The notes: generated from the sequence alone by a model not told the origin. Positions 36,789 to 63,731 are shown, counted from the first letter of the stretch. The stretch is 64,000 bases of DNA from Candidatus Poribacteria bacterium (GCA_028820845.1 JAPPII010000010.1:15537-79536); one strand, 5' to 3'. Numbers and translations are program-made.

Positions 36789-37625
36789 GTGCATAATGCT
36801 GTTTTTTTCTTTTGTATTAATGTTAGGCTTTTCATCGTAGTTGGACTCTTAACCTATTTGCTATCGGGATGTAATCCGTCCGATCAGGCACAGCAACAGC
36901 GGCGCGAACTTCAACGTGATGCTTTGCGGCTTGAAATGGGACAGGCACTCAACCCGACAGATGCGGAGGGGTACATCCAACTCGGAAAAATCTATCGCGA
37001 ATTGGGTGAGTACGAGAAAGCACTGGACGCGTTTCAGGGTGCTATCGCACTTGATGACGAGCACGCACACGCCTACAACAATCTCGGTCTGGTTTATATT
37101 GATCTCGGTCTGTATGTCCTCGCTATTGATATGTTCCAGGCCGCGCTTGAGTTCGATCCCGGAAATCCTGCCTTCTATAACAACCTCGGCTATGCGTACG
37201 ATAAAACCGACCAATTTGCTGAAGCTCTCGCCGCCTTTCGTACCGCAATTGAAGAAGATCCAACCTTCGTTGATGCCTATAACAACCTCGCGGATGCGTA
37301 TCTCTACCGCGAAATGTATCAGGAGGCTATCCAGCAGTATGAAGCAGCCCTTGAAATAGAAGCCGGGGACGCTGATGTCTATTTCAATCTCGGTTTCGCT
37401 TACGAGGAGACTGGGGAATTCCTCCGCGCCATCCAGTCCTATGAAAGAGGTATATCCCTCGATAGCAGCGACGCAGAGGCATATTATCGCCTTGCACAGG
37501 TGTATGAGAAAAATGGTGACACACTCATGATGCGTCGTTATCTGGAGGCGTTCTTAATGCGCGCGAGGGATATTCCATACCTCCAAGAGCAGGTTCGCAC
37601 CGCTGAGGAACTGCTGGATAGGTAG
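36789..37625 (+). CDS. TPR-repeat lipoprotein
   Basis: Lipobox LLSGC. Consecutive AYNNLG.. / AYYRLAQVY TPR units. Confidence 0.75.
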   Translation: MHNAVFFFCINVRLFIVVGLLTYLLSGCNPSDQAQQQRRELQRDALRLEMGQALNPTDAEGYIQLGKIYRELGEYEKALDAFQGAIALDDEHAHAYNNLGLVYIDLGLYVLAIDMFQAALEFDPGNPAFYNNLGYAYDKTDQFAEALAAFRTAIEEDPTFVDAYNNLADAYLYREMYQEAIQQYEAALEIEAGDADVYFNLGFAYEETGEFLRAIQSYERGISLDSSDAEAYYRLAQVYEKNGDTLMMRRYLEAFLMRARDIPYLQEQVRTAEELLDR

Positions 37626-43678: not shown

Positions 43679-43809
43679 AAAATTATCGATCCCTCTATGT
43701 ATTCCTCTATTTCCCTCCATAGCAAAAAATTTTGCATAAAAATTCATTTTATGCAACCTTTCCACCCTTAAAATCCCACTTAACATCACAAGGCAATATT
43801 CTTTAGGAG

Positions 43810-46803
43810 ATGGTCATGAAAAACGACGATATTGATCTGATTCATCGTATCTTGTCAGGTGATGAAGATGCGTTCACTACATTGATGCAAAAGCACCGAC
43901 GTTGGGTGTATTCACTTGCATGGCGTGAGATTGGTGATTTTCACGCGGCGCAGGAGATTACGCAAGATACCTTTATCCAAGCTTTTAAGTCGCTGCCGAG
44001 TTTAAGAGATCCGAATCGTTTTTCTGGGTGGTTGCATGCGATAGCGAAGCGTCAATGCGTTGCGTGGCTACAAAAGAAGCCGATTGCGATGCAGTCCCTG
44101 GATACGCTGCCGAAAGCCGAATTGGAACAGTTGTTTTATACACAGTACCTTGAAGAGGAACGGATACAGGCATCAACGGCTGATTTGCGAGAAGTTGTGG
44201 AATATCTCCTGCAAAAGTTACCCGTTGGTGAACGTTCTGTAATGGTTCTGCACTATTACAAAGGCTTGACCTGTGAAGAGATGAGTGAGCGTTTAGAGGT
44301 GTCGTTGAATACAGTGAAAAGTCGTTTATATCGTGCAAGGAAGCGATTAGAGAAGGAGGAATCAATGCTTCGAGAAAACGTCGGTCCGAACCTATTGAGA
44401 AGTGAGCCGCGCCGCGTTGACATTCAGACGACTGCGGCAACGGAAACGGGTGATCATTTGGCAGAAGGCGGTTTTAACTTCAACCAAACTTCTAAGGTCT
44501 TTACATCTTCTGGCTTTCACACGAAAGGTTGGGGTGGCGGCGATCCATCGCCGATGTACATGTTACTGCACTATCTCACCCACGGTTGGATTGACCTTTT
44601 TAAATTTCCTTTGGTTTCGGGTAGTTCGTGGGAACAGGAAGGCGGTTGGAAATCACGAGGGACAGCAACCGTTGAGGCTTATGAAACGGTAAATGTATCC
44701 GCGGGCACTTTTCCAATGTGCCTGAAGCATAAGACTGTTTTCACGGATGCTGATGTAGAAGATACCAACGCTGAGTTGCGAAGTGCGCTTGTAAACGGGA
44801 CGCGTTATCTGTGGTTTGCCAAAGGTGTTGGACTCGTGAAGATGCGTTATGAACATTCCAACGGTGTCGCAACAGAAGCCGAATTGCTTAAATACGAAAC
44901 GCCGACGCAGCAAGGCGAAACGTACTTTCCTGTTCAGATAGACACGCAGTGGACATACAAGTGGCATAATACCTATCGCGATAAAGCGGTTATTGAGGTG
45001 TGGCGTGTCATCAGGAATTTCCGTCAACTTGAGGATGCTGGTAACCCGGTGCAACTTGAATCGGCAAGATATGAGGTCAGTGTTGATGCGAATGAGCCGC
45101 GCGTAGCGAATGTCAAGTGTATCCTAACGCCAAAAAGCGGCGGTGGTACGAAAAATGACCGAAAGCGTTTGTTTTTTTCTATGAGTCGTTTTGGTACCGA
45201 TTGGTTGTACGATGGATATGCCCGTTCTCTTAGAGATGTGACGGCTACTGATGCGAAAGGTAAAGCACTGGTTGTAGAAGAGATTGCCAAAACGCAGTGG
45301 GTCGTTGAAACACGTGATGCATCGCCTGTGACACTCCAATACAAAGTGTTGCTGGATCACGATGAACGGGATTGGCCCTTTGGTAGAGACGAAGCTCCGT
45401 ATGCCCAAGACGATTGTATTTTCTGGCCCGGATATGCGCTGTTTATCGTTGGTGAGGTGGACGATATTGAACTGTCTGTTGATGTACCTGATAATTGGTC
45501 CGTCTCGACCCCTTGGGAGCGGATTGAACCCAACGGACACCGTTTTGTTTGTAAAAATCAAGACGATCTGATGTATGCGTACCTCGTGCTTGGTGAACAT
45601 TCTGAGCGTCTGGTAAGTTCAGGAGAGGCAGAGATTGTGCTTGCACTGGGGGGACGCTTTAAAGCTTCAATGGATAAAGTTGCGTCTGCTGTCGAGGCAA
45701 TTCTACAGGCATATTCAGGCATATTTGGTGGAACCCCGAAAGGCAGCATGCTATTTGTCATGAATCCTTATGGCGGGGAAGAATACCGCAGCGGTGGGGC
45801 ATCAGAAAGAAGCATCACGGCTCTGATCGGTGGCGCATTGGACGACGGCAGAGCGGATTTTTGGGGACCCTTGGTTGCAAATGTGATTGGTTATATCTGG
45901 AACGGAAAAGTTATTCATTTTGCTGAGCAGGAGTATGGGTTCAGCGAAGTTAATGAACAGGAGTATTGGTTCAGCGAAGGTTTCAGTAAGTATTATTCAA
46001 GTGTTATCTGTACTCGCCTCGGACTTATTTCTGAAGGCGATTTTCTCAGGAGTCTTGAACTTGCATGGGAATCGTATCTGTCTCAACAGGGCGAACGCTC
46101 CATTCGAGAGGCCGGTGAAGATAAATTAGCCAATCGAGAACTCGTCTACGACGGTGGGCGTTTAATCGCTGCCGCACTGGATTTACAGATTCGTAATCTA
46201 ACGAAAAATCGAAGCAGTTTGGACGATGTGATGCAGCAGATGTATCGAGAGTTTGGTCTCACCGATACTGCGTACACGATGGACGATGTCATCAGGATCG
46301 TCAGCCAAGTTGCGGGTGAAAACTTTGAACCTTTCTTCAGCAAATACGTGACGGGGACGGAAAGGTTACCGTTAGAGGAATACCTTAAGGACGTGGGTGT
46401 GGATGTTGAGATAGACCTTGGAGAACGGCTCCCGAAACTTGGGTATATCATCCATGAAATGCTGGGTATCGGTTCATTTGGGGGACCGCCGGGTGGCGGC
46501 ATGTTCATCCATCGATCCCGAAAGTTTCAGGATGATGACAGGCTGATAGGTATTGACGGCACACCGGTGAAGACGCGTGACGACATTAGAAGGGCTGCCA
46601 AAGATTGGAAATCTGGGGATGTGGTGAGGTTGACACTTGAAAGAGAGGGAGCAGAGATTGTCTTGCCTGTTACATTAGAAGGGGATCCGTCTAAAGAACC
46701 GCCATTGGAGTCGGATGTTACTGATGTCGCTATTAGAAAAAAAACGGATAACACAGAGTCGCAACGTGCAATTTGGTCGGGAATCTTAGGTGAGGATCAG
46801 TGA
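43810..46803 (+). CDS. ECF sigma factor fused to a ~800-aa C-terminal extension (unassigned region, catalytically degenerate M61-like peptidase, PDZ)
   Basis: Sigma region 2 (DEDAFTTLMQKHRRWVYSLAWREIGDFHAAQEITQDTF) and region 4 (LPVGERSVMVLHYYKGLTCEEMSERLEVSLNTVKSRLYRARKRL). This is followed by a continuous ORF with the M61-like WFSEGFSKYY box, ANVIGYIW in place of HExxH, and a terminal PDZ-like segment (GIDGTPVKTRDDI...GDVVRLTLEREG). The ATG at 43816 has better SD spacing. Confidence 0.8.
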   Translation: MVMKNDDIDLIHRILSGDEDAFTTLMQKHRRWVYSLAWREIGDFHAAQEITQDTFIQAFKSLPSLRDPNRFSGWLHAIAKRQCVAWLQKKPIAMQSLDTLPKAELEQLFYTQYLEEERIQASTADLREVVEYLLQKLPVGERSVMVLHYYKGLTCEEMSERLEVSLNTVKSRLYRARKRLEKEESMLRENVGPNLLRSEPRRVDIQTTAATETGDHLAEGGFNFNQTSKVFTSSGFHTKGWGGGDPSPMYMLLHYLTHGWIDLFKFPLVSGSSWEQEGGWKSRGTATVEAYETVNVSAGTFPMCLKHKTVFTDADVEDTNAELRSALVNGTRYLWFAKGVGLVKMRYEHSNGVATEAELLKYETPTQQGETYFPVQIDTQWTYKWHNTYRDKAVIEVWRVIRNFRQLEDAGNPVQLESARYEVSVDANEPRVANVKCILTPKSGGGTKNDRKRLFFSMSRFGTDWLYDGYARSLRDVTATDAKGKALVVEEIAKTQWVVETRDASPVTLQYKVLLDHDERDWPFGRDEAPYAQDDCIFWPGYALFIVGEVDDIELSVDVPDNWSVSTPWERIEPNGHRFVCKNQDDLMYAYLVLGEHSERLVSSGEAEIVLALGGRFKASMDKVASAVEAILQAYSGIFGGTPKGSMLFVMNPYGGEEYRSGGASERSITALIGGALDDGRADFWGPLVANVIGYIWNGKVIHFAEQEYGFSEVNEQEYWFSEGFSKYYSSVICTRLGLISEGDFLRSLELAWESYLSQQGERSIREAGEDKLANRELVYDGGRLIAAALDLQIRNLTKNRSSLDDVMQQMYREFGLTDTAYTMDDVIRIVSQVAGENFEPFFSKYVTGTERLPLEEYLKDVGVDVEIDLGERLPKLGYIIHEMLGIGSFGGPPGGGMFIHRSRKFQDDDRLIGIDGTPVKTRDDIRRAAKDWKSGDVVRLTLEREGAEIVLPVTLEGDPSKEPPLESDVTDVAIRKKTDNTESQRAIWSGILGEDQ

Positions 46804-46823
46804 TTTTGTAATGAGGTGAGTTT

Positions 46824-48350: not shown

Positions 48351-48365
48351 AAGGAGGAGAGACGA

Positions 48366-49817: not shown

Positions 49818-49960
49818 CGGTCAGCGGTCAGGTCGCTATGCTTCAGCAGTCAGTAGTTCGTTTGTGGCGGGTGAAAACGTCCACAACTGATAGATGCTCT
49901 TACTGATTGCTGAGAGTGGCGGACGCAGCACGCAACGCCCTGATGACTGAACGCTAACTA
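49818..49960. repeat. Word-repeat element filling the convergent junction between the two permease/TolC operons
   Basis: gcggtcagcggtcagg...cagcagtcagtag on the left. Inverted ...gcacgcaacgccctgatgactgaacgctaacta on the right. Confidence 0.75.
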
Positions 49961-51340
49961 CTATTCAATCCACTCCATTGTTTCTCGGAGTTTTTCCTTT
50001 GCCCTTGCATGATCTCGGCGGGTTTGATAATAGACGCGTTGTGCCTCTGTAAATTGTGCTTGTGCTTGAAACGCATCGTTGTAGGTTAGACCTTGGTAAC
50101 CGGGGATTTCGACGGTGACTTCATCCAGCACGCGTTCAATCGTCCGTAACTGTTGCTCGAAAATTCTCACCCGCTTTTCTTCAATTTCCATCCGTTCTCT
50201 TGCATTTGCCACCTCACGGTAGTCCCGTCGCACCTCTACACGGATTAACTTTGTTTTTTCGACGTACTCGAGCTGCATTCGCTCAAGTTCTGCGACTTCT
50301 CGGGAGCGAAGGTTCTTCGTCTTATTTCCATCGTATAACGGGATGTTGAACTTAAAACCCAGTTCCCATCCATCTTGGGTGCGTGGATTTGTCTCAAAGA
50401 GACTCGCGCCATCTCGTTCACGGTCAAGTATCACCGGATCATAGATGGCTTTTGCGTCCCACGTCTGGTTACCTGCTTGTTGCTCCAGGAGCACACTGAG
50501 ATCCTTATAGCGTGCTTCAGCAGAGAGTTCAGGGAAGCGGTTCCAGATAGTCTCTCCGGCGAGACGTTCTTGACGCAACATATCGCCTTGTAAGTCGCGA
50601 AGGTCAAGACTATTGGTGATTGCGAGTTCAACGGCAGCTTCGAGCGTTACATCGTCGTCTGGAAGGGGGCGCGAAAGGACAACCTGTGCAAGTGGGTCAA
50701 GTCCAGTGAGACTGATGAGTTCAGCGGTATCCACGTCGAGTTGTCGTTGGAGTTCGTTGAGTGCGAGTTGCTGTTCTGAGAGTTCCAATTCTGTGTTGAG
50801 TTGCCTGAGAAATGGAATCCGCCTTTGGGTCTGTTCAATTTTTGTGCCTTCTAATTTCTTTTCGAGTTCCACCGCAATCGCACCCCGTTCTTTAATTTCT
50901 TCTTGCGTGAGAATAATATTATGCCAGAGATTCCGAACAGCGTAGACGATCTCCTTCTTGGCGCGTTCGTATTCAATTTCGGCTTTGCGAACCTCTTCCT
51001 GTGCGGCATCAAGACCTTGCGGGATTTCACCGAATTGCGCAAAGAGCATGCTCGCTTGTGCGCGAGTGAGATAGTCTCTGTCTTCGATGTCGCCATCTTT
51101 CTGTCTTTGATATTCGCCGGTGAGTCCGACCTGTGGGAGGTAAACAGCTTTAGAGACACGGAGGTTTGCCTTGGCGCGCTCGACAACTTTCTCTGCTTTT
51201 TTGACTGTTTCGTTGTTTTGTAAAGCGAGTGCTATTGCGCGTTCTGGCTGAAGTGAGACAAGGCGTTGTGCTGAGACGACACCCGCAATACTGAGAAACA
51301 GACACACTGCAAGTGCCGTCAACTTTTTGTTCATTCTCAA
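49961..51340 (-). CDS. TolC-family outer-membrane efflux protein
   Basis: Signal peptide. Two-fold repeat of long helical segments. AIALALQNNETVKKAEK...LPQVGLTGEY start is typical of OEP proteins. Confidence 0.8.
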   Translation of the reverse strand: MRMNKKLTALAVCLFLSIAGVVSAQRLVSLQPERAIALALQNNETVKKAEKVVERAKANLRVSKAVYLPQVGLTGEYQRQKDGDIEDRDYLTRAQASMLFAQFGEIPQGLDAAQEEVRKAEIEYERAKKEIVYAVRNLWHNIILTQEEIKERGAIAVELEKKLEGTKIEQTQRRIPFLRQLNTELELSEQQLALNELQRQLDVDTAELISLTGLDPLAQVVLSRPLPDDDVTLEAAVELAITNSLDLRDLQGDMLRQERLAGETIWNRFPELSAEARYKDLSVLLEQQAGNQTWDAKAIYDPVILDRERDGASLFETNPRTQDGWELGFKFNIPLYDGNKTKNLRSREVAELERMQLEYVEKTKLIRVEVRRDYREVANARERMEIEEKRVRIFEQQLRTIERVLDEVTVEIPGYQGLTYNDAFQAQAQFTEAQRVYYQTRRDHARAKEKLRETMEWIE

Positions 51341-51345
51341 GCTCC

Positions 51346-53709
51346 TTAACGGCGGCTGATGCGGATTGTGACAACCACAATCGCAATCATAAGGAGAATC
51401 AACGCACCGAAAAGGAGCGTCGTTACCGACATTTGCGTCTGTGATTCAACCTGTACTGTAATTGAACGGTCGCGTGCCTCAAACTTCCGGTTATCGACCG
51501 TGACTTCGGCGTTTAACTTCGCTTGATATTCGCCAACCCCGATATCCGCAGGTGGACTTAAGGTCAGTTGTATCTCCGTCTCCGCATTCCGTCCGAGTGA
51601 ACTGACAACTTCGGGGATAACCGTGTATTTCCAGTCCGTGTTGACATCAACGATCATACGGATATCGACGAGGTCGCGGGTACCGATATTCTTTAACGTC
51701 GCTGTCATGTTGACCTCTTCGCCTATTTTAATTGTCTGGAACGCATTCGGCACGAATACCTCAATCTCTGGAACACCTTTTGGAATCAGTTCAAACCGTT
51801 CAACCCCGCCTTGTATCCCCGCGATCCTATCGGCGGGTAAATCCAAGCGATTGTTGACCCCACCGAGTTCGTTTGCCTCTGCCTCGTCCAAAACAGCAAC
51901 ATAGAACTCAAGTGTACTGTCAAGATAGGAGGCATCCAGTTCTTCTGGCAGATAGACGATTAGGGACAAACTCCGTTTCGACTGTTCCTGCGTGAACTTC
52001 ACCTGTGACTGACGCGACTGCGTTTCTGGGTCTTGGAATTCAAAGGAGAGGCGGTTCAGCAGGTTAATGACGCGGAGTTGGAAAGTGTTTTCTGTTTCAG
52101 CCAACCGATCCAATGTCAAGTCATAAGTGACGCTGCTGCCGAGGTTCCCCTCCTGCGAAAATCGTAATGAACTGACGTTTACCACATCCAAGGCAGATTC
52201 TTTTTGTAGATAGATGAGGCGTGTGTCGGGTTCGGGGAGTTCGGGATACTTCAACTCCACCTTCAAGCTTTCGACATCTTTCTGAAGTTGAAACGTCAGT
52301 TCCACGGTTTCGTTGTAGCCGAGGACGGGTATCTTCGTTTCATAAGGTTTGACGATGTTTGTGTCATCGGTGACATCGAGCAAGGAGACGTAAATTCCTC
52401 GGATCTCGTTTGCCGCTGCAATCTCTTCAGGGGTTGCGTTGCTCGGCATCGCCTCGGTTGTGGAGGTGTTCTTGAGTTGAAGCGTCACCATCATTTGGTT
52501 GTCCACGCGAAACTTCTTCGCACTCAGGATAGAAATGTGGCGTGTATCTTCCTCAAGATGGATTTTTTTCGGGTACGGCTTGTCAAGGTATAGAATATGA
52601 ACCGTAACGCTATCAATATTCCGTCGGAGTTCAAAATCAAGAGTTGTCGCCTGTCCATCTTTCAGCGATGGGATCCGGTATTCGTAGGGGAAACCGATAA
52701 TCGCGTCAGTTTCGTCTCTGATGGAGACATAGACGTTGTTAATCTCTTGCGCTGTCGCGCCATTCGAGTAATCTGTGGGGTCAGTGGTGTCTGTTTCTTT
52801 TCTCTCTCCCTTTATGGCACCGTAGGTAAGTACAACCTCCAAGTGCCGTCGGTCGCCCTTCTTGTAGCGTCTCGCTGACACGACGGAGATGTAGGGGTCT
52901 TCCTGTTTTAAGTGGATATTCTTATTGTCAGTCTCACCCGAGTATATCAACTCGACAACGACATCTCGTACATCCTCTTTTATGAGTTCAAACTCTAACG
53001 TAACGGCTTCACCCTCTTTGAGCGTTTCGATGCGTTGTTCGTAAGGTTCAGCGATAATTGCCCCACTTGTGCCGTAACCTTCCTGCTCTTTAATCGACAC
53101 AAAGATGTCGTCAATCTGTGCACTAATAATAATTTCGCGTCCCAACACTTTGGAGCTCTCAACGAGTGTGACGGGGGATGAGCTATTCCGCAACGTGATT
53201 GAGAACAGTTCTCTTCCGTCGTCGGATTCATATAAGTTTGTGCTTTCGACAGTGATGTGCCACTCGTCCTTGAGCGAGTTAAGTTCGGTGTCTTGCAGCG
53301 TCAGTTTTGCTTGTTCGTATTCGGAGACGGCGGTTTCGTAATCTTCCTCCGCTTTATTCACTTGAGAGACAGTGACGATATTATTTGCCTCCATCATCAT
53401 CGCTTTAAGATTTTCAAGTTCAACCAACTTCTTTTTCATCAGTTGTTCCTTGAGTTCCATTTCCAAGCGTTTCGTCTCTATCTGGATTTGGCGGCTCTGT
53501 TCCTCTTTGGTTTTTGCTCTGTTCTCATCGGAAACCGGTTGGGTCTCTTCTGCAAACGCTATCGGTGTTTCTGTAGGCAGCAATATCCCTATCGTGCCGA
53601 TAAAAATAAACACGAGCATTGGAATTGAAAGATTGGAAGGTTGGAAGATTGGTGTCACCCATTCTTCCATCCATCCATCTGTCCGTCCAAGTATCTTCCA
53701 TCCATCCAT
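51346..53709 (-). CDS. Doubly membrane-anchored 787-aa protein: N-terminal TM, coiled coil, three ~116-aa internal repeats, NEW3/CARDB-like domain, C-terminal TM
   Basis: Hydrophobic segments MLVFIFIGTIGILL and LLFGALILLMIAIVVV. Heptad-rich aa 60-145. Repeats share the pattern VYVSI..(x)..PYE.RI..LK.G...TL.FEL...V..V.V...Y....K.IHL.E. C-terminal TLKNIGTRDL...GEYQAKL pattern. Confidence 0.7.
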   Translation of the reverse strand: MDGWKILGRTDGWMEEWVTPIFQPSNLSIPMLVFIFIGTIGILLPTETPIAFAEETQPVSDENRAKTKEEQSRQIQIETKRLEMELKEQLMKKKLVELENLKAMMMEANNIVTVSQVNKAEEDYETAVSEYEQAKLTLQDTELNSLKDEWHITVESTNLYESDDGRELFSITLRNSSSPVTLVESSKVLGREIIISAQIDDIFVSIKEQEGYGTSGAIIAEPYEQRIETLKEGEAVTLEFELIKEDVRDVVVELIYSGETDNKNIHLKQEDPYISVVSARRYKKGDRRHLEVVLTYGAIKGERKETDTTDPTDYSNGATAQEINNVYVSIRDETDAIIGFPYEYRIPSLKDGQATTLDFELRRNIDSVTVHILYLDKPYPKKIHLEEDTRHISILSAKKFRVDNQMMVTLQLKNTSTTEAMPSNATPEEIAAANEIRGIYVSLLDVTDDTNIVKPYETKIPVLGYNETVELTFQLQKDVESLKVELKYPELPEPDTRLIYLQKESALDVVNVSSLRFSQEGNLGSSVTYDLTLDRLAETENTFQLRVINLLNRLSFEFQDPETQSRQSQVKFTQEQSKRSLSLIVYLPEELDASYLDSTLEFYVAVLDEAEANELGGVNNRLDLPADRIAGIQGGVERFELIPKGVPEIEVFVPNAFQTIKIGEEVNMTATLKNIGTRDLVDIRMIVDVNTDWKYTVIPEVVSSLGRNAETEIQLTLSPPADIGVGEYQAKLNAEVTVDNRKFEARDRSITVQVESQTQMSVTTLLFGALILLMIAIVVVTIRISRR

Positions 53710-53729
53710 ATTTTTTCACCCTTCTCTCT

Positions 53730-54464
53730 CTACTCAGGCGCGTCTTCTTCAGATTCATATCCAGCGACATAGTGCAGGTACAACGCCTCAAGGTCCTCTT
53801 TTTGAATCTCGTCGCGCGTGAGTTCCCGCTCCAGGTTACCTTCCACAAGGATTCCTATCCTATCGGCGATCTCCTTCGCACGGAAAATATCGTGCGTGGA
53901 CATGAAGATGGCTTTCCCTTCCTCTTTGAGTTGGCGGAGTAGGTTCAAGAAATCGGCACCGCCCTTGGGATCCAAGCCGGAGGTCGGTTCATCGAGCAGG
54001 ACGGCTTGTGCGTTCTTCATAATCGCAATAGCAATCCCCAAGCGTTGACGCATCCCTTTAGAGAACGTCTTGACGCGCCGTGTAAACGCTTCCTCTGGTA
54101 AACCGACACGTCCGAGTGTTGCATCTAATTCCTCATTGGATACCTTCTTCCGTCCACCGAGTTTCGCAAAGAAAGACAGGTTTTGACGTGCCGTGAAGTT
54201 GCGATAGAGTTCGACGTTCTCGGAGACGTAGGCGAGATGCTTCTTGGCTTCCAGTGGAAACTTAGGTATCTCAATGTCCCCGACGAGTGCGGTGCCGCTT
54301 GTAGGTTCGATAAAGTTCAGGAGCATGGAGATGGTCGTACTTTTCCCTGCTCCGTTTGCGCCGAGAACGACATAGATTTCGCCATCATCCACTTTTAGAT
54401 TCAAGTTGTTAACGGCTAAAACGCTTTCATTATAGACTTTCGTGAGTTCGCGGGTTTCTAACAT
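53730..54464 (-). CDS. ABC transporter ATP-binding protein
   Basis: Walker A GANGAGKST, signature SKGMRQR, Walker B VLLDEPTSGLD. Confidence 0.92.
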   Translation of the reverse strand: MLETRELTKVYNESVLAVNNLNLKVDDGEIYVVLGANGAGKSTTISMLLNFIEPTSGTALVGDIEIPKFPLEAKKHLAYVSENVELYRNFTARQNLSFFAKLGGRKKVSNEELDATLGRVGLPEEAFTRRVKTFSKGMRQRLGIAIAIMKNAQAVLLDEPTSGLDPKGGADFLNLLRQLKEEGKAIFMSTHDIFRAKEIADRIGILVEGNLERELTRDEIQKEDLEALYLHYVAGYESEEDAPE

Positions 54465-54536
54465 TGGGTTTCTCCTACAGTTGGTTTTCTCTGTGTATAT
54501 GATACCAGAAATTTAAAGGGTTTTCAAGCGAGACCT

Positions 54537-55211
54537 TTATCGGTTTTTGCTGTTGCCAGTGCGAATGCTCTCAGTAATATTGGTAGAACTGAAGGGTCCT
54601 TTCTCGCTGTGATGGAACTGTTCTCTCGCGCCCAGAATCTCGATACGGTGATTTACCAACTTATCCATATAAGCAGCTTTGTAAGTTTCCCAATCCGTTG
54701 TCGGTGGAATATCCAAAATGCCTAACTGTTGCAGATTCGGGTTGTCTTCGAGAAGTGCCAACGTGTGCCGTTTTGATAGGTAGCGTGAGTAGTCGCCGAA
54801 ATTTTCTATGGTAACGCCTCCGTCCAGAAGGTGTTGGAGCCATTCTTCTCGCGGGTATCTTGCATCTATCTCGCGTTCTGTGAAGGTGCTAACATAATTT
54901 GCGGTTTCTATGCCAACGCCTTTACGATGGATATTCACCTCGGTCTTTGCATGTCCACGGTTGTAGTCTGCATTAAATGCTTGCATAAGTTCACGTGCGT
55001 TTTGGGGTCCAGTATACTTTTTGTGATTGGGGGGTGCTGACCAACTGAATTCTACATGTTCGCGTAACTGGATATTCGCTATTTCGCTTTCAGAAATGTA
55101 TTTCTGCGTGTGCGAATAGTCGGAGCAACTGCTGAGAAAAATGGCAAGTCCCAAAACTGTGAAAAGTGAAAGTCTGGATAGAACGTCTACGCTGCGAAAA
55201 GTGTTTTTCAT
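54537..55211 (-). CDS. Hypothetical lipoprotein
   Basis: Lipobox FLSSC after a hydrophobic leader. No recognised domain. Confidence 0.55.
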   Translation of the reverse strand: MKNTFRSVDVLSRLSLFTVLGLAIFLSSCSDYSHTQKYISESEIANIQLREHVEFSWSAPPNHKKYTGPQNARELMQAFNADYNRGHAKTEVNIHRKGVGIETANYVSTFTEREIDARYPREEWLQHLLDGGVTIENFGDYSRYLSKRHTLALLEDNPNLQQLGILDIPPTTDWETYKAAYMDKLVNHRIEILGAREQFHHSEKGPFSSTNITESIRTGNSKNR

Positions 55212-55321
55212 TTTTTGGTCTCCTTTGTTTGTGTAACCTGAAGGATGTTGTATCCCTTCATTCTATTTTTTCGTAGGGTTACCGAGAGATATACTGACTT
55301 ATGTTTATAGTGACGCGTTTT

Positions 55322-55349
55322 GAAGGCAAAAAGGTTGCATTATTTTTTT
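55322..55349 (-). promoter_or_regulatory. ECF-type promoter candidate TGCAAC-N18-CGTC upstream of the lipoprotein/ATPase/repeat-protein/TolC operon
   Basis: Minus strand reads aatgcaacctttttgccttcaaaacgcgtcact, near-identical to the element at 63538-63564. Confidence 0.55.
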
Positions 55350-55459
55350 CAGTATGTTACACACCTATTATTGGAAAGAGTTCCTAAAAGACACTATCTG
55401 GAGATAGGTGCATACTGATAACCTGGGATTGCAAGCTCTGCCGACAAAGGCGTTCTTTA

Positions 55460-57148
55460 CTATCGCTGACTTAACATCATGGTTACGAAGAAAAGGATAG
55501 GGGCGAGCCTTGCTATTGCATCAATCGGTTTTTCTTCGGGTGAGAGTGTCAGTTCCAGCGATGCCGCATCCGCTCCGACAGCGAGCGAAGCGAACAGAAC
55601 CCCTACTTTTTGTGTGAACGCAATTACCTCCGGTCTCCACCACGGAAGTCCCTCAGTTTCAACAAAAGGTAAAAGCTTTTCTATGTTGAGTTGGAACAAG
55701 CACGCTGGATTTGCCGGTAAATCTTCCAGTCTCCTTTTAAAGCTGGATGTCGGATTTCCAGTCAAAAGATTATCAACGATGGATTTATACTGTTTTTCAG
55801 ACAGTGCTATCACAAATAGTTCGTTGACACTTCCATAATAGAGGGTGCCGGATATAGCAGCAGTGTTAAAGGTCATGCCTTTATAGTCAAACTGTTGGGG
55901 GGATTCGGTACTGAGTTTTTCGAGGAGACCGTTGAAAAGAGCCCGCCATTTCAAGGGAGAAGCGGGATTAAAAATCAACCCTAAATCCGTCTCCGCAAAT
56001 TCAACTTTAAACCTTTCAATCTTTCCACCCGTCAATCCGGTGTTAAAATTAGGAGGTTTCTCTAAGAAGGAAATATCCGCGCTGATAACAAGTTCGCCTG
56101 TCACTGCCGCAAGCAGATCGGTCTGATCGGGTATCAGAAAACTCCTGAGGCTCTCATCGATGGAGGTTGTGTTCCTCTCGGAAGCAAAGAGCATCCGCCA
56201 AAAGGTCTGGGAACTTGATGGCGCGACCGTAAGGAAGAGCACCTCGTCCCCTGACAAGCCCTGAATGGCTTGCATTTTAGATGGCTCTTGGAACAGCGAG
56301 ATGAGTGTACCTTGTCCACCATTCTTCAATGTGCCGGACAGCTGTTGGCTGCCACCCGGTTTCAGCAGATCCCACCTGTAGACCAACGTCTGGAAAGCGT
56401 CTAATTGTTTACCAACAACAGGCGGTAGGAGTGCTTTCAGATAAGGACCTCCTGTTTCCACATCCACATACGCGAATACCTCGCTTTTCCCAAATTTATC
56501 CGCAACAGGACGATAGGCAGTGTTTTCAGTGATGGCACGTCCTTTAGTCTTGTAGGTGTCCACCATTTTCTCAAAGCTACCAGGGGTAATGCCCACCAGC
56601 AGAAGGGTTTCATCAACGCGCCCGTATGTGAGTTCCAGTGTGTTAAGTTGTGCAGTATGGTACGTGATGCCTTGATAGTCTCCTACCTCAGGTTGTACGG
56701 GGTTTCCTGCCATGCCGCTGAGGGTTGTCACGACTTGGGATAAGATTTGTTCGGCTGCTTGGCGTTGGTTCCCGCTGTTTTCAATAACGATTCCCACCAT
56801 CAACCCCGCTGCGCCAGGCGAAACTGTCACTGCGACTTGGCTTCCCAAAAAGGTTTCGATTAAACCTTGGATGTCCGCCCCTGTAAACATGGGCAGTGCC
56901 TGCATGAGTTGTTGAATATCTTGCCACTGTGAGGCAGCGGAGATGAAACCTGCAGCCGCCTTCCAGTTTTCGGAGCTCCCAATTGCCACACGACATTCTT
57001 GTAGGTTTTGGAGTTTGAGGTAGAGGAAGCTATCCGATGGAATGACGGTTTCTATCGTTTGGGCGTGCGTTGCTGATCCAAGCAGGACAGTGAAGATAGA
57101 GATGAGCCACAGATAGGATAAGGAACGTGTAGGGATTCTTTTTATCAT
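55460..57148 (-). CDS. Secreted protein, DUF3352-like
   Basis: Signal peptide ending THAQ. N-terminal IPSDSFLYLKLQNL pattern and ~560-aa size are reminiscent of DUF3352. Assignment is from memory only. Confidence 0.45.
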   Translation of the reverse strand: MIKRIPTRSLSYLWLISIFTVLLGSATHAQTIETVIPSDSFLYLKLQNLQECRVAIGSSENWKAAAGFISAASQWQDIQQLMQALPMFTGADIQGLIETFLGSQVAVTVSPGAAGLMVGIVIENSGNQRQAAEQILSQVVTTLSGMAGNPVQPEVGDYQGITYHTAQLNTLELTYGRVDETLLLVGITPGSFEKMVDTYKTKGRAITENTAYRPVADKFGKSEVFAYVDVETGGPYLKALLPPVVGKQLDAFQTLVYRWDLLKPGGSQQLSGTLKNGGQGTLISLFQEPSKMQAIQGLSGDEVLFLTVAPSSSQTFWRMLFASERNTTSIDESLRSFLIPDQTDLLAAVTGELVISADISFLEKPPNFNTGLTGGKIERFKVEFAETDLGLIFNPASPLKWRALFNGLLEKLSTESPQQFDYKGMTFNTAAISGTLYYGSVNELFVIALSEKQYKSIVDNLLTGNPTSSFKRRLEDLPANPACLFQLNIEKLLPFVETEGLPWWRPEVIAFTQKVGVLFASLAVGADAASLELTLSPEEKPIDAIARLAPILFFVTMMLSQR

Positions 57149-57162
57149 AGTTTTTTCCTTTT

Positions 57163-58722
57163 TTATACCTCTGAACGGATAAAAATCAGGAATGCCCCTA
57201 AAAGAAATACGCCGAGCAGTCCGACGAGCAACAGTATATCCAGTATTGCTGCGTTGAAGGTATCGCTAAAAGTGATTTTATCCTCGAAGTTTGGAAGTGC
57301 CTGCGGTGAAATCGGCTTGTTGGACATTCCCTCCGGGATTCCGATGATATGGGGGCTTTCTGTATCGGCACGATCGGTTTCAATGATGAAGTCTCGGAAC
57401 TGTCTGATATGAAGGTGCACACTGTCAAGAAATTGCAGGTGGCGGTTCAACCCCGTACCAGTCATAGATTCAAGGGCGTATTGGACGATGGCTGCTGGCG
57501 AGAAACGTGTCACCGCCCTGGCGCGCTGGACTTGCGCGAGTTGTGCCCTTAAATGCTCGCGGTTTAGCCGCTCCCGGATTTCGACATCTTTGTTGACAAA
57601 CTCAGCCTTGATACGCAATTCTTCCTCATCTGCATCTGCCTTTTCGGCTTCGGCTTTCGCCATCGCCGCCATAAGTTCTGCTTGTTTCTCCTTTGCCAAT
57701 TTTTCCGCTTCTTTCGGCGAGGTTTTCGCAAGGTCCATGAGTTGACTGAGAAGACCTCCGGTTTGTGATTGCGCTTTGTCCATCATTTGCTGGTCGAAAT
57801 CATCGTTAATCTGCTCAAGCGCGCGCCTTTTTGCGGTTTCCCTTTGATGAGCGGTTTGGACGGGAGACATCCATTTTGTGGAGAGCGTGCCGAGAGTGGA
57901 AGGCATAAAGACGACGAGTGCCACCCAGATAATCAACAGCACGACGAGACTCACCCGGGTGTCTCGCGTGCCAGCGGAGACCATCAACCCGATTGCGATG
58001 AAGATACTGGCGTAACCTAAGGCGATCAGCATAATCATCCCCAAACGTCCCCAGTCTGCCGCCCCGAGCTGCGTCCAACTATCTGTGGAAATTACCGCCA
58101 GATTCAACAGTACTGCAAAACAGAACGGAATGAGAACGGCTATCAGGGTACCTAAGAACTTTCCGACTAAGAGTGCGGGACGCGAAATCGGGTTGGCGAG
58201 GCATAATCGGAGCGTTCCGCTTTCTCTTTCGCCAGAGAGGGCATCGAAGGTAAACAAGAGGGGAATGAAAGAGAGTAGATAGGTAATGATAAATACGTAG
58301 TCTATCTTTGTCGCCTTGGGACGTAGGTCCCGCGCATTCGGATTGGCGGTGGGATAGTCCGCCGACCAGATGCTTTTGACTTGTATGCCTAATCCCGCAG
58401 TTCTACTCCAGGATCCCCAATTTTGCGTGCCGCGATTCGGCAAAAAGGCATCCGCGCTGTCTGCAATGAAAGTCAATGCGGATGGCTGTTTGTAAAGTGT
58501 CCCAGGCCCCTTTCTCAGGAGTTCATAGAGCTCCGTCCGCGACTGCAATGTGTCGCGGTCACGGGCGACGTTCTCAGAATAGCTCCGGACCTTGTCTGGC
58601 TGGCTCTGAAGGTGCACCACGGCATTGGTTATCATGAGTGCTGCCATGATGATGACAGTCAAGGCGAAGCGGAGGCTGTTGAGATGGTCAAAGAACTCTC
58701 TTTGAATGATATGTCTAATCAT
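57163..58722 (-). CDS. ABC-2-type permease-like polytopic protein (paralog 3 of 4)
   Basis: AAGGAG lies 8 nt before the ATG at 58722 (MIRHIIQREF). LSGERESGTLRLCLANPISR motif. Confidence 0.75.
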   Translation of the reverse strand: MIRHIIQREFFDHLNSLRFALTVIIMAALMITNAVVHLQSQPDKVRSYSENVARDRDTLQSRTELYELLRKGPGTLYKQPSALTFIADSADAFLPNRGTQNWGSWSRTAGLGIQVKSIWSADYPTANPNARDLRPKATKIDYVFIITYLLSFIPLLFTFDALSGERESGTLRLCLANPISRPALLVGKFLGTLIAVLIPFCFAVLLNLAVISTDSWTQLGAADWGRLGMIMLIALGYASIFIAIGLMVSAGTRDTRVSLVVLLIIWVALVVFMPSTLGTLSTKWMSPVQTAHQRETAKRRALEQINDDFDQQMMDKAQSQTGGLLSQLMDLAKTSPKEAEKLAKEKQAELMAAMAKAEAEKADADEEELRIKAEFVNKDVEIRERLNREHLRAQLAQVQRARAVTRFSPAAIVQYALESMTGTGLNRHLQFLDSVHLHIRQFRDFIIETDRADTESPHIIGIPEGMSNKPISPQALPNFEDKITFSDTFNAAILDILLLVGLLGVFLLGAFLIFIRSEV

Positions 58723-58735
58723 TGTGTTTTCTCCT

Positions 58736-60211: not shown

Positions 60212-60225
60212 AATCTAAACCTCGG

Positions 60226-60268
60226 TGTTGGTTATTGGTTTTCAGTTAACTGACAACCCTGAAAGGTC
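60226..60268. repeat. Word repeat with CAGTTAACTG palindrome
   Basis: ggttattggttttcagttaactgacaaccctgaaagg between the secreted-protein and permease genes. Confidence 0.6.
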
Positions 60269-60337
60269 TTTATTAATTAAAGATACAATCTAAGGGCAAA
60301 AAAGTTGCTTAATTTTTCAAAAAAGGCTATCAGGAGC

Positions 60338-62005
60338 TTACCGAACAGAGATTCGGGCTCGAAAAGCGTTGGTGCCTCCTTCCTGATTGACCCAACCGCC
60401 AGTGGCACGGAGTTGAAAGACCTGCCCCTTGTCAAATCGATAAGTGATTGTTCCGGTTTCACGGGGTTGGATTCCCCATGCCTGGGCGAGTGCGTTCTGA
60501 GGTGTTCCTTCTGTCTGAAGTGCATTGTCGCCAGGGAACAGATCGAACGAACCGACAAGGTCTGCCCTACCAACTTGAATGGCGATGGTGAGTGTGCCGC
60601 CGTTTTCAAAGGCGGTCGTATCAATTCTTATAACAGTGGCATCTTGAGGGGCAGTCGCATAACCAAAAGTGTCCAGTACTTCCACGGACGGTTGTATCCG
60701 GTCGAGGACAACCCCGCGACTGCTTGACAGTGGCATCGGGATGCTCTCACCGACTCCGGGGCGTTTTCCTGCCAACGCTTCTGAAAGGAACAGCCGATAC
60801 GCCTTCGCCTTATTGCGCAAGGGGAGCTCGTTAACAGGCTGCCTACCCATGAGTTCAAGTTCAGGTGAGATAATCAAAGAATCTATAGGTGAGAGTCTCT
60901 TCCAGCCCTGAACGATGATTTGTGTCAAAGGCGGTAGGTCGTCAATAGTGTTTGCATCTCGTAAGCGTTTCATGTCGGTATTGAGTACCCACGTGTTGAT
61001 AAAACTGTCGTTCAAGAGTTCGATATTTTTATCATCAGAGAGAGCAACTGCCCTCAGGCTCTTGCCGCTCCCTCCGCACGCTTCATCAGTCAGTGGACCA
61101 TTTGTTGAAACAATGTGAATCGGTTTCTGTTCTGCCCGTGCCATTTCTAAAGCTGCATCTACCGATACCCAGTTAATGTACTGTGATTTGTAAAAACGTC
61201 GTATTAAGATACGTTCGGCTTCTGATAGAGGTATTGCTTCAGAGAATTGGGTATCTTGAATTATAGTTTCTGTACCGGCACGAAGTTCGATTTGCGGGCA
61301 GAAGCCGGCATCCGTTGTAAAGATGCGCCTATCGTTATGGTATCGGTTGACATCGAAGTTGAGTGTGCCGTGAGGGACGTACATTTGAAAGAAGGCGACT
61401 TTCTCGTCTGGACGGTTGAGGACGAGATGTCCAGTAAACTGTGAAGGGGTGAACCAACCGTCCGCTAACCTGAACTCTGCATGAACGCGAAACACGATGT
61501 GGGCTATTTCGGCATTGTAGGCACGTAGACACGCCCATGCCCCGCGCGAATCTCCCGAATTGATGTGCATATCGAGATGTGGGTTCGGGTGAAGTTGCCT
61601 CAGCAACGCCAGTAAACCGTCTTGTTCGATTTCCCAGAGATCGCCAACAGAGACACCATTCCCACGTGATGTCGGATTTTCGCGGAGGAGGCTTTGCAAC
61701 CTTTGGAGGAACGTTTTCCCGCTCCCCTTTCGTAAGCCTACTTCCGTCGGAAGAAACGCCTGAAAGACCGCTGTCGGATACTGCTTTTCAGGCTCGGCGA
61801 CTCGTAGGTTCGCCAGTGCGTCCCACTCTACATGGAAATTGCTTCCGGTGTACGCAATCGGGGCGATAAAGCCTTTGACGACAACGTTAGCGTCGCTGTC
61901 AAGCGTGAGAGTGATTCTGTTGGCAGTGGGTGTGTCAGCTGCAAATCCCCAGTATGGCAGGAACAGAACAGAAATCAGAAGGTTCCCGATGCCTAATTTC
62001 TTCAT
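60338..62005 (-). CDS. Secreted protein sharing a ~105-aa C-terminal domain with the adjacent sigma/anti-sigma fusion
   Basis: GGAGG lies 7 nt before the ATG at 62005. Signal peptide MKKLGIGNLLISVLFLPYWGFA. The C-terminus ATVIRIDTTAFENGGTLTIAIQVG...GTITYRFDKGQVFQL...GGTNAFRARISVR aligns with the C-terminus of 62050-63381. Confidence 0.7.
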   Translation of the reverse strand: MKKLGIGNLLISVLFLPYWGFAADTPTANRITLTLDSDANVVVKGFIAPIAYTGSNFHVEWDALANLRVAEPEKQYPTAVFQAFLPTEVGLRKGSGKTFLQRLQSLLRENPTSRGNGVSVGDLWEIEQDGLLALLRQLHPNPHLDMHINSGDSRGAWACLRAYNAEIAHIVFRVHAEFRLADGWFTPSQFTGHLVLNRPDEKVAFFQMYVPHGTLNFDVNRYHNDRRIFTTDAGFCPQIELRAGTETIIQDTQFSEAIPLSEAERILIRRFYKSQYINWVSVDAALEMARAEQKPIHIVSTNGPLTDEACGGSGKSLRAVALSDDKNIELLNDSFINTWVLNTDMKRLRDANTIDDLPPLTQIIVQGWKRLSPIDSLIISPELELMGRQPVNELPLRNKAKAYRLFLSEALAGKRPGVGESIPMPLSSSRGVVLDRIQPSVEVLDTFGYATAPQDATVIRIDTTAFENGGTLTIAIQVGRADLVGSFDLFPGDNALQTEGTPQNALAQAWGIQPRETGTITYRFDKGQVFQLRATGGWVNQEGGTNAFRARISVR

Positions 62006-62049
62006 TTTCAAACCTCCAAACAAAGTTGAAAGAATAAGTAAAAATAGGA

Positions 62050-63381
62050 TTACCGAATGGAAATTTGTGCGTAAAAGGCGTTGGTACTTCCTTTTTCGCT
62101 CTGCCAATCGCTTGCAGCTCCCAATCGAAAGGCTTGCCCCTTGTCAAATTGATAGGTGATTGTTCCTGTACCACCGGGTGGGATTCCCCACTGATGTGCA
62201 AGCGCATCGCTTGATCTACGTATGCCTCCCCTTGGAAGTTTGCTGTCGCCATCAAATAGGTCGAATGAACCCGCTGCTTCGCCGCTACCGACGCGAATGT
62301 CAATCGTTAACATCCCGCCGTCTTCAAACGCTGTGGCATCAATGTGGACAACGGTATAGTCCAGATGCCCGCTTTCCGGCATCCGAAAAAAGTCCAATAC
62401 CTCCATCTGCGTCTGCTGTGTTTCTTCTGTTAGCACTTCCGGGTCTTTTGCTTCGAGAGCTGCCATTCGGTGGGTATCTGCCCCTGGACTGGATCCGGTG
62501 TTTCTTCCCGGTGTATCTGTGCGACCGAGTTGGGTTTTCACGGCGGGTTTAACCTGCCTCATAGGTGCCGCAGGTGCCTCTACGATGTCAATTCTCATCT
62601 CCGAAGTCGCGTCTAAACTGTAGGGGTGCTGGAAATAGGTTATATATTCATTGCCCATTCCGAGGATCAGCAGTGCCACGATAGCAGTTGAAGCGGTTAC
62701 TGCCCAAGGGAGCTGGGGCGTGTTTCCTTTCGGTGGTGCAGGTTTGATGCCGCCTCCTTTGTCTTTCACGGCTTGTATGATGTTCTCAGTCAAATTTGGA
62801 GAGATCTGGAAGGTGCTGAGTGCCTCTTGAATCAAGGGTTCTTCCTTCTTCAAACGTTGACGGGCGCGACTGAGCCGACTCTTAATCGTATTGGCGGATA
62901 CCCCCAGAAACTTGCTAATTTCTTCACACGTCATCTCTCCGAAGTAGTAAAGTGTTATGATGGTGCGATCGCTCTCTTGTAATTTGGCAAGCAATTTTTT
63001 GACGACTTCTCGCTGTGCTTCAGTTACTGTTTTTGCTTGCTCATCTGCCACATGTTGGGAATAGGTGTCTTTTCCTTTTCTCATAAGGTCAATATCCTCC
63101 ACGAGTTGGGCATGCAGCCGTTTCTTCCGGAGCCGCGCAATGCAGCACCGGGTCACAATCACATATAGCCATCCCGGAAATCGCTCCAGTTCTTTCAGGG
63201 TTGCCAGATTTTGATGGACTTTCAGAAAGGTCTCTTGCGTAATATCTTCAGCGATATGGAAGTCCCCAATTTTGCGCCACGCGAGGGCGTGGACGTGTTT
63301 CTGGTGTTTTTTCACGAGCGTGGTGAAAGCGGTTTCATCGCCATCAAGTGTGCGGCGAATTAATTCAGCGTCATTTTGCAT
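62050..63381 (-). CDS. ECF sigma factor fused to a single-pass transmembrane anti-sigma-like module and an extracytoplasmic C-terminal domain
   Basis: Sigma regions 2 and 4 (DETAFTTLVKKHQKHVHALAWRKIGDFHIAEDITQETF; LQESDRTIITLYYFGEMTCEEISKFLGVSANTIKSRLSRARQRL), a TM helix (LPWAVTASTAIVALLILGMG), then ~200 further residues. Confidence 0.8.
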   Translation of the reverse strand: MQNDAELIRRTLDGDETAFTTLVKKHQKHVHALAWRKIGDFHIAEDITQETFLKVHQNLATLKELERFPGWLYVIVTRCCIARLRKKRLHAQLVEDIDLMRKGKDTYSQHVADEQAKTVTEAQREVVKKLLAKLQESDRTIITLYYFGEMTCEEISKFLGVSANTIKSRLSRARQRLKKEEPLIQEALSTFQISPNLTENIIQAVKDKGGGIKPAPPKGNTPQLPWAVTASTAIVALLILGMGNEYITYFQHPYSLDATSEMRIDIVEAPAAPMRQVKPAVKTQLGRTDTPGRNTGSSPGADTHRMAALEAKDPEVLTEETQQTQMEVLDFFRMPESGHLDYTVVHIDATAFEDGGMLTIDIRVGSGEAAGSFDLFDGDSKLPRGGIRRSSDALAHQWGIPPGGTGTITYQFDKGQAFRLGAASDWQSEKGSTNAFYAQISIR

Positions 63382-63537
63382 CGGATACCTCCAAGAAGGG
63401 ATTTTTCGTATGGGGCGTAGGAGTTACGCGTTCATCAAGCGTTCCTGATAAGCTCTCCAGTTAACTATAACTGCTTCGATCCTATTCGTCAATTGAGGAA
63501 GCAAAGAGGTGGCGTTAATCCCGAATTGCCCATTAAT

Positions 63538-63564
63538 GACGCGCGTTGAGGAAAAATGGTTGCA
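63538..63564 (-). promoter_or_regulatory. ECF-type promoter candidate TGCAAC-N17-CGTC upstream of the sigma/anti-sigma fusion gene
   Basis: Minus strand reads tatgcaaccatttttcctcaacgcgcgtcatt, about 150 nt upstream of the ATG at 63381. Confidence 0.55.
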
Positions 63565-63574
63565 TAATTATATA

Positions 63575-63605
63575 AAAAAGAAGATTCGGAGAAAATCTTC
63601 TTTTT
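63575..63605. terminator. AT-rich bidirectional hairpin with flanking T/A runs (weak intrinsic terminator candidate for the PD40-like gene)
   Basis: aaaaagaagatt-cggagaa-aatcttcttttt, followed by T-runs on both strands. Confidence 0.4.
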
Positions 63606-63731
63606 TCTTTTTGCCTCTAAAATTGGGTGTGCCGTGCAACATCAAATATCCAACCTGAAAAATTTCAGGAATGCCACGGTCGTCAACACGATTCCAGAAA
63701 AGCAGAGCAGTAACACATCAACCACTTTTCG

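Follow-up and report, generated by a model that had tools for sequence, protein, structure and literature searches.

We analysed a 64,000-nt stretch of DNA from a Candidatus Poribacteria bacterium (GCA_028820845.1, JAPPII010000010.1:15537-79536), referred to below as the window, and describe here a locus of 12 genes near its downstream end. Poribacteria are sponge symbionts. Genes were called from a listing of open reading frames (ORFs) and from Pfam/NCBIfam scans of the window proteins, which together reproduced the gene content and coordinates given for the locus in an initial annotation made from the sequence. The locus encodes two extracytoplasmic function (ECF) sigma factors, four permeases, one ATP-binding cassette (ABC) ATPase, one TolC-like outer-membrane factor (OMF), one 787-residue protein with a NEW3 domain (the NEW3 protein) and three accessory proteins (Table 1), and the genes that flank it are unrelated housekeeping genes. 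On the minus strand, the order of transcription is the 443-residue sigma factor (sig443), the 555-residue protein, permC, permD, the 562-residue protein, the lipoprotein, the ATPase, the NEW3 protein and the OMF, and the last four lie together at 55211-49961, as first annotated. A protein identical to the NEW3 protein of the window is annotated as 'NEW3 domain-containing protein' in a Candidatus Poribacteria metagenome-assembled genome (MAG), and contig VXZL01000546 of GCA_009845505.1 carries the same 12-gene locus.

Table 1. Genes and other features of the locus, in window coordinates.
Feature	Position	Strand	Basis
Promoter-like site before the sigma-M61 gene, TATGCAACC-N17-CCAC (orthologues CGAC)	43750..43786	+	Kept in L084, L085 and L086
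ECF sigma-M61 fusion, 997 aa	43810..46803	+	Pfam: sigma, DUF3108-like, Peptidase_M61_N, M61, PDZ
permA, ABC-2 (NosY-like) permease, 508 aa	46824..48350	+	Pfam, topology, box
permB, ABC-2/DUF3526 permease, 483 aa	48366..49817	+	Pfam, topology, box
Long imperfect hairpin, intergenic, between the convergent operons	49818..49960	.	Folding z-scores
TolC-like OMF, 459 aa, signal peptide	49961..51340	-	Pfam OEP, two stretches, E=4.8e-35
Adaptor-like NEW3 protein, 787 aa	51346..53709	-	Pfam, AF2 model, hairpin profiles
ABC ATPase, 244 aa, DrrA/GldA-like nucleotide-binding domain	53730..54464	-	Pfam/NCBIfam, window sweep
Lipoprotein, 224 aa, lipobox LSSC	54537..55211	-	ORF listing
Complete ECF-type promoter-like site, TGCAACC-N17-CGTC, before the lipoprotein-ATPase-NEW3-OMF operon	55312..55341	-	Motif scan
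Secreted protein, 562 aa, hydrophobic C-terminus	55460..57148	-	ORF listing
permD, ABC-2/DUF3526 permease, ORF 527 aa	57163..58746	-	Pfam, topology, box
permC, ABC-2/DUF3526 permease, 491 aa	58736..60211	-	Pfam, AF2 model, Foldseek
Promoter-like site before permC, same -35 element (TAAGCAACTTTTT), weak -10	60285..60311	-	Motif scan
Secreted protein, 555 aa	60338..62005	-	Paralogy with the periplasmic domain of the 443-aa sigma factor
ECF sigma factor with one transmembrane helix (224-242) and periplasmic domain, 443 aa	62050..63381	-	Pfam/NCBIfam
Complete ECF-type promoter-like site, TGCAACC-N16-CGTC, before the sig443 gene (putative autoregulation)	63538..63566	-	Motif scan

All four permeases score 96-111 bits on Pfam ABC2_membrane_2 (PF12679; NosY-like), for which the cut-off is 27.2. 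They carry the same (S/A)GE(R)xxGTLxLxxS box and the same topology of six transmembrane helices, with a loop of ~100 residues after the first, helices 2-5 following, and an insert of ~200 residues before the sixth. Box, topology and PF12679 are thus each found in 4/4, confirming that these are paralogous permeases of ~500 residues. The DUF3526 family (PF12040, cut-off 25 bits) is matched by permB (27.7), permD (33.3) and permC (36.4), and permA scores below the cut-off at 20.4 bits. In pairwise comparison permA is closest to permC (32%) and permB to permD (31%), which indicates that a pair was duplicated as one unit. A split into A/C-type and B/D-type permeases, as a strict alternation within heterodimers would imply, was also sought in other phyla and was not robust. 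The permD gene probably starts at 58722, since the gene call in L001 has 519 residues against the 527 of the ORF. The nearest solved relative of the permeases by sequence is NosY (E=4e-8), and a Foldseek search with the permease model returned NosY chains as all of its top 11 matches (E 6e-5 to 7e-4, target-normalised template modelling score up to 0.71), followed by ABCG, ABCH and PmtD at E>0.1 only. In the model, a loop of low confidence (55-123) and a helical DUF3526 domain (about 271-431) lie on the periplasmic side. When all ORFs of the window were searched with phmmer, exactly one ABC ATPase, two ECF sigma factors and four permeases were found, in agreement with the single ATPase counted initially. 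On Pfam OEP (PF02321) the OMF scores 121.5 bits (cut-off 22) over two repeats, and it matches TIGR01844 below the cut-off only.

The AlphaFold2 (AF2) model of the NEW3 protein, built on a 39-sequence alignment, has a mean predicted local distance difference test score (pLDDT) of 76.8. Behind a disordered leader, it contains an antiparallel α-hairpin formed by helices 68-106 and 114-149 (block-mean pLDDT 75-93 over residues 71-150), then five to six β-sandwich domains (152-755), including NEW3/CARDB, and finally a C-terminal transmembrane helix (762-786). The protein was originally described as anchored at both ends, but its orthologues have classic N-terminal signal peptides ending AxA, for example MRVLVFIGAMGVLLPIITPMVYA before EE or MKKLITTTMLFLLVAQISFA before QT. 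The N-terminal hydrophobic stretch is thus a cleavable signal peptide, which leaves the C-terminal helix as the sole anchor, and the protein does not have the N-terminal membrane or lipid anchor expected of an adaptor. The true start of the window protein may be M31, at 53619. A sequence search of the PDB with the whole 787-residue protein gave no match.

It is the hairpin that relates the NEW3 protein to the periplasmic adaptors, or membrane fusion proteins (MFPs). A profile of the hairpin region of 38 short-form NEW3 relatives (profile A6), searched against 177,635 PDB sequences, gave 34 matches, about 24 of which are periplasmic adaptors. MacA (E=1.8e-5) and MexJ (9e-5) are the best matches, and 4l8j, AcrA, EmrA, MexA and ZneB are also found. 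The alignments cover the adaptors' own hairpins and run across the RxxxLxxxxxxS (RLS) motif, which forms the TolC-binding tip in MacA, AcrA, MexA and HlyD (PMC3391258). Among 106 representatives of the NEW3 family, the RLS columns show R (45%), L (87%) and S/T (80%). Comparison with hhalign finds the poribacterial hairpin profile (A7) to be clearly homologous to A6 (probability 98%, E=1e-13), and this transitive homology, a relation between sequence profiles, supports the NEW3 protein as a candidate adaptor with an MFP-type hairpin. The initial suggestion that the 787-residue protein stands in for the adaptor therefore gains from the homology of the hairpin, from A7 to A6 and from A6 to MacA, but the anchoring is inverted, being C-terminal with the hairpin at the far end.

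Among 1.84 billion cluster representatives, searched exhaustively with HMMER, there were 408 relatives of the NEW3 protein, most of them of ~500 residues and matching query residues 430-787. They have in common a signal peptide, a helical N-terminal region, β-rich domains and a C-terminal transmembrane helix ending ...SRR. Homologue searches with the NEW3 protein and the permeases gave matches that were almost all from Poribacteria and hence of little taxonomic reach. A genome scan with the conserved peptide LELIPRGVG (alignment A2) yielded 77 NEW3 loci, from Latescibacterota, Gemmatimonadota, Aminicenantes/Acidobacteriota, KSB1, Bacteroidota, Calditrichota, Glassbacteria and others. The ORFs of these loci were searched with the window proteins, the remainder was clustered, and representatives were scanned against Pfam. 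Near the NEW3 gene we found one ABC ATPase in 57/77 loci, ABC-2/DUF3526 permeases (2-8 genes) in 60/77 and an OMF in 32/77, usually in the order OMF-NEW3-ATPase-permeases, and members of the family as a rule have many permeases to a single ATPase. A sigma-54 response regulator is present in 40/77 loci and a GAF histidine kinase in 33/77, usually divergent from the module. At nine loci, the OMF or NEW3 gene has a sigma-54-type promoter (TGGCA-N6-TTGC) 11-235 nt upstream, and these account for 9/22 matches to this pattern in 2.4 Mb. Given this canonical layout in the 77 loci and the sigma-54-type promoters at nine of them, the gene association is conserved far beyond the Poribacteria genome. Closer to the window, two diverged poribacterial loci of the long form (L081 and L082, 44% identity) have an ECF sigma factor, four permeases, a second ECF sigma factor, NEW3, OMF and ATPase, and in a third (L083, 64%) ATPase-NEW3-OMF is faced by four or more permeases. 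The set that the initial annotation had grouped together is thus also co-localised in related genomes. The system is not unique to the window genome, being one variant within a widespread and apparently undescribed family whose normal control is by sigma-54; a literature search found no paper describing such an OMF-coupled ABC-2/NEW3 system. The window also encodes a HAMP histidine kinase and an NtrC-type sigma-54 response regulator at 27601-31111 (+), 13 kb upstream of the locus, a two-component system of the kind that usually adjoins the module in other phyla.

The sigma domains of the genes starting at 43810 (+) and 63381 (-) are 44% identical over 196 residues (E=1e-51), which agrees with their first description as paralogues. 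Both pass Sigma70_r2 and Sigma70_r4_2, score 88-93 bits on TIGR02937 (cut-off 42.9) and have the sigma-70 regions 2 and 4 only that define ECF factors. No transmembrane segment was found in the 997-residue sigma factor, whose extension matches Pfam M61_N at 43.4 bits (cut-off 23) and M61 at 31.7 bits (cut-off 22), and its M61 domain aligns to PDB 4fgm (E=3.5e-17). The fusion is encoded by single ORFs of 992-996 residues in L084 and L085 and again in L086, where the contig end cuts it. Its presence in three independent metagenome contigs indicates that it is real; with a 301-residue junction segment as query, these proteins are 66-78% identical to the window protein. The HExxH zinc site is absent from the window protein, which has NVIGY in its place, and the three fused orthologues have RLVCY, GVVCY and YMVSS. 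HExxH is intact, as HEVFH or HEFFH, in relatives that have no sigma domain (L087, two in L088, and L054). As 4/4 sigma-fused proteins are without HExxH, the M61 domain of the fusion is a pseudo-peptidase, and its most plausible role is in sensing or inhibition. In the main text of the ECF re-classification paper (PMC7826278), neither 'peptidase' nor 'PDZ' appears.

Three of the sigma-less proteins are poribacterial paralogues (L087 1140-4193; L088 9719-12805 and 14401-17418) with two DUF3108-like domains and an intact HEVFH, and are likely to be active ancestors of the sensor module. The fourth, at L054 14177-15940 (+) in a Gemmatimonadales MAG, is an M61 peptidase with a PDZ domain and an intact active site; it lies just downstream of a NEW3/ATPase/permease module, which hints at a wider link between M61 peptidases and the NEW3 transporter family.

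With its sigma domain, transmembrane helix and periplasmic domain, the 443-residue sigma factor resembles IutY and the ECF52-type fusions, which are thought to be activated by proteolysis (PMC8999054). The fused groups used for comparison include forms with a transmembrane segment (IutY/ECF243, ECF48/52/53) and soluble forms (ECF41/42); in contrast to them, the 443-residue protein has no zinc-finger anti-sigma motif. Its periplasmic domain is 53% identical to the last ~120 residues of the 555-residue protein. The 997-residue sigma factor is like the soluble extended ECF factors in its long C-terminal extension, but this consists of a DUF3108-like domain, the dead M61 domain and PDZ.

The upstream regions of the four transcription units were read for a common motif. 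In each of them, and in sense orientation, there is a promoter-like TATGCAACC-N16-18-CG(T/A)C; an AAC-containing -35 element with a CGT-type -10 element is the typical layout of ECF promoters. With at most one mismatch, TAWGCAACYWTTT has 6 matches in the window against 0.72 expected, a count reached by 0/100 shuffles, and 4/6 of these lie upstream of and in sense with the four units, at 43750(+), 55341(-), 60311(-) and 63566(-). The full bipartite TGCAACC-N16-18-CGWC occurs twice in the window (0.17 expected), before the sig443 gene and before the lipoprotein-ATPase-NEW3-OMF operon only. The sigma-M61 orthologues in L084, L085 and L086 have a conserved upstream block, CATTTTATGCAACCTTTcc.ccCTTAAAA.ACGAC. 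Further copies of the motif precede the permease pair in L084, a locus with an inserted extra ORF, an additional gene in L085, and both the NEW3 gene and a sigma gene in L081. The presence of the motif before 4/4 units and its retention before orthologues support probable autoregulation and dedicated ECF control, the latter as proposed in the initial annotation. That annotation also placed a sigma gene at the head of a permease-pair operon on each strand; this arrangement stands for the plus strand, but on the minus strand the 555-residue gene and a separate promoter-like site intervene. Generic scans for sigma-70 promoters and terminators gave results at chance level.

Outside the locus, a fifth copy of the motif (TTTGCAACCTTTTGCTTCAAAA), close in form to the ATPase-operon site and without the CGTC -10 element, is found at window 6797-6830 (+). 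It follows a gene at 5999-6772 and precedes a zinc alcohol dehydrogenase gene (7601-8605) by ~800 nt, with a HepT-like toxin ORF (6901-7377) on the opposite strand nearby. The ORF inserted in L084 (12874-14004, -) is unannotated, encodes 376 residues and lies between the sigma-M61 gene and the permease pair, with the motif duplicated downstream at 14371-14410 (+).

The plus- and minus-strand genes do converge where the initial annotation put a word-repeat element, but the internal repeats of this 143-nt region are only 7-11 nt long and of no weight. The region folds instead as a long imperfect hairpin (minimum free energy -60.6 kcal/mol; z=-3.9 on the plus strand, with 0/200 shuffles equal, and z=-3.0 on the minus strand), likely a bidirectional terminator or RNA stabiliser. 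This hairpin is found in near-identical loci only; a repeated mobile element was considered and rejected, as no repeat was found elsewhere.

The 562-, 224- and 555-residue proteins, the periplasmic domain of sig443 and the hairpin region of the NEW3 protein have no meaningful Pfam match at E<=5, and no NCBIfam family matches any of the three accessory proteins. In L002 (ENA ERZ21830300), a near-identical strain variant, the 562-residue gene is absent, the homologue of the 555-residue protein is truncated, permB is split, and an extra permease gene lies upstream of the sigma gene. The lipoprotein and the 562-residue protein are kept only in close relatives.

On balance, we lean towards the view that the locus encodes a tripartite, OMF-coupled ABC-2 pump with a NEW3 adaptor, driven by ECF sigma factors. 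In such a pump, permA with permB and permC with permD would form two alternative heterodimers of the NosY-type fold with large periplasmic domains, and one shared ATPase would power both. The NEW3 protein would be held in the inner membrane by its C-terminal helix, its β-sandwich stalk would span the periplasm, and the MFP-type α-hairpin at the far end of the stalk would dock on the TolC-like OMF, doing the job of a periplasmic adaptor. Substrate taken up at the membrane or in the periplasm would leave through the OMF, as in MacAB-TolC. The two paralogous sigma factors, autoregulated and using a common TGCAACC -35 element, would drive expression: the 443-residue one would be tethered through its transmembrane helix to a periplasmic sensor domain and presumably freed by proteolysis, and in the cytoplasmic 997-residue one, the dead M61 and PDZ module would presumably act as a ligand-sensing inhibitor in cis. 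The locus would then apparently be a poribacterial, ECF-rewired variant of a widespread OMF-coupled ABC-2 system, in which the adaptor keeps only the hairpin of an MFP. An envelope-spanning export machine under ECF control had been proposed initially, and co-localisation, the promoter motif and the hairpin match all support it; export itself we infer, together with physical assembly, ATPase sharing, the direction of transport and activation of the sigma factors.

Compared with MacAB-TolC, the locus is alike in having one ATPase activity, large periplasmic permease domains and a TolC-family duct, and in an adaptor that would dock the duct through an α-hairpin, which in MacA, the top PDB match of A6, carries RxxxLxxxxxxS. 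The permeases differ, with an ABC-2/NosY fold of six transmembrane helices where the MacB/FtsX fold has four. In contrast to MacA, the NEW3 protein has no lipoyl, β-barrel or membrane-proximal domain, is anchored at its C-terminus and carries the hairpin at the N-terminal end of an Ig-like stalk. YbhGFSR of E. coli combines an ABC-2 heterodimer (YbhS/YbhR) with the MFP YbhG, a canonical member of the HlyD family, and its ATPase YbhF carries two nucleotide-binding domains. The locus resembles it as an ABC-2 heterodimer with an accessory periplasmic adaptor, but here one single-domain ATPase would serve two permease pairs (elsewhere up to four), and the adaptor is not of the HlyD family.

Several observations weigh against a NEW3-based pump. 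No Pfam HlyD, biotin-lipoyl or β-barrel domain was found in the 12 proteins, even at E<=5 in a search that included the N-terminal 216 residues of the mature 787-residue protein, so that the initial statement that no recognisable HlyD-type adaptor is encoded holds. Foldseek with the full NEW3 model returned generic tandem immunoglobulin-like (Ig) proteins only (hydin, α-2-macroglobulin, complement) and no adaptor. With no HlyD-family domain in Pfam and only these generic matches in Foldseek, the NEW3 protein does not belong to the MFP family. At the modelled tip of its hairpin, the RLS positions are occupied by K102, M106 and T113, a conservative variant of the motif, and the poribacterial profile A7 by itself gives no significant match to adaptors, with MexJ at an E of about 1. 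The permease model is of moderate confidence only (pLDDT 64). At the level of gene order, the OMF lies near NEW3 in only 32 of the 77 loci, and permeases are missing from one poribacterial locus (L080, 49%), which has NEW3 and OMF only. The sigma-M61/permease operon of L084 and of L085 does not adjoin an OMF-NEW3-ATPase operon, and these halves are therefore separable modules. Finally, a structural study of NosDFY reportedly describes NosFY as a mechanotransducer rather than a conventional exporter.

The last point leads to an alternative that we regard as unlikely, if still worth weighing, in which the locus is a NosDFY-like mechanotransducer. ATP-driven conformational work would then act on the NEW3 protein, the lipoprotein and the 562-residue protein, so that an envelope component is loaded, matured or inserted, with the OMF as target or structural partner and not as the exit. 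In sequence and structure alike, the permeases have no significant relative other than NosY of NosDFY(L), and they have large periplasmic domains. A lipoprotein gene also stands in the ATPase operon, as NosL does in nosDFYL clusters. However, Pfam and NCBIfam found no NosD-like β-helix protein and no NosL-like lipoprotein, and membership of NosDFYL is rejected on this ground. The permeases are also twice as long as NosY, with the DUF3526 insert, and the locus has an OMF and a hairpin protein. The MFP-type hairpin with its RLS-like motif and the frequently adjoining OMF point to docking on a duct, and the lipoprotein and the 562-residue protein, on which the work would be done, are not kept outside close relatives.

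Slightly less probable again is a co-regulated stress regulon rather than one machine, with the permease pairs as separate transporters that may use other ATPases encoded elsewhere in the genome, NEW3-OMF having a role of its own, and ECF promoters being all that the genes have in common. The four separate promoter-like sites would suit such a regulon, as would the sigma-M61/permease-pair operon standing alone in L084 and L085 and the NEW3 and OMF genes of L080. Against it, NEW3, one ATPase and several permeases closely adjoin across distant phyla, and a second ATPase is absent within the 64 kb. Membership of the GldAFG gliding-motility transporter or another named ABC-2 system is highly improbable: the NCBIfam matches of permA and permB to GldF (24-30 bits, cut-off 288.5) and of the ATPase to GldA (139 bits, cut-off 402.6) are weak, no GldG/ABC_transp_aux protein was found among the locus proteins with Pfam, and GldAFG is rejected on the curated cut-offs and the missing GldG.

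The remainder of the window holds further genes outside these subjects. At 8754-15026 (+) there is a 2090-residue gingipain-like Peptidase_C25 protein with a C-terminal FlgD_ig domain, and at 17312-19081 (+) a 589-residue trypsin-like protease with a Por_Secre_tail (type IX secretion) sorting domain; these two suggest type IX secretion cargo in this poribacterium. The G+C content falls to 0.41 at 16001-18000 from about 0.48 elsewhere, and a YhgA-like transposase gene is found at 19213-20319. A 751-residue FGE-sulfatase-domain protein (32427-34682, +) overlaps the end of a prepilin peptidase gene, and a 467-residue DNA methylase is encoded at 37525-38928 (-).

To our knowledge, all well-studied tripartite pumps use HlyD-family adaptors. 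More tentatively than the pump itself, and with more doubt than confidence, we propose that the NEW3 family may be an unrecognised adaptor class, with a C-tail-anchored Ig-like stalk and an RLS hairpin tip, which would couple sets of interchangeable ABC-2 permease heterodimers (2-8 genes), powered by one shared ATPase, to a TolC-like duct. It would be a modular, multi-specificity exporter widespread in the FCB group, Acidobacteriota and Poribacteria, its control rewired here from sigma-54 to two ECF sigma factors, one of which would sense through a dead M61 domain and PDZ. If this is true, a second, structurally unrelated adaptor scaffold keeps the TolC-docking hairpin alone, showing which part of an adaptor is indispensable, and a large unannotated family of envelope machines would be revealed in poorly studied phyla. 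The many permease pairs per ATPase suggest a plug-in widening of the substrate range, and fusion to a pseudo-peptidase would be a novel means of gating an ECF sigma factor. For the sponge symbionts themselves, such a pump may be relevant to how well host or microbial compounds are tolerated.

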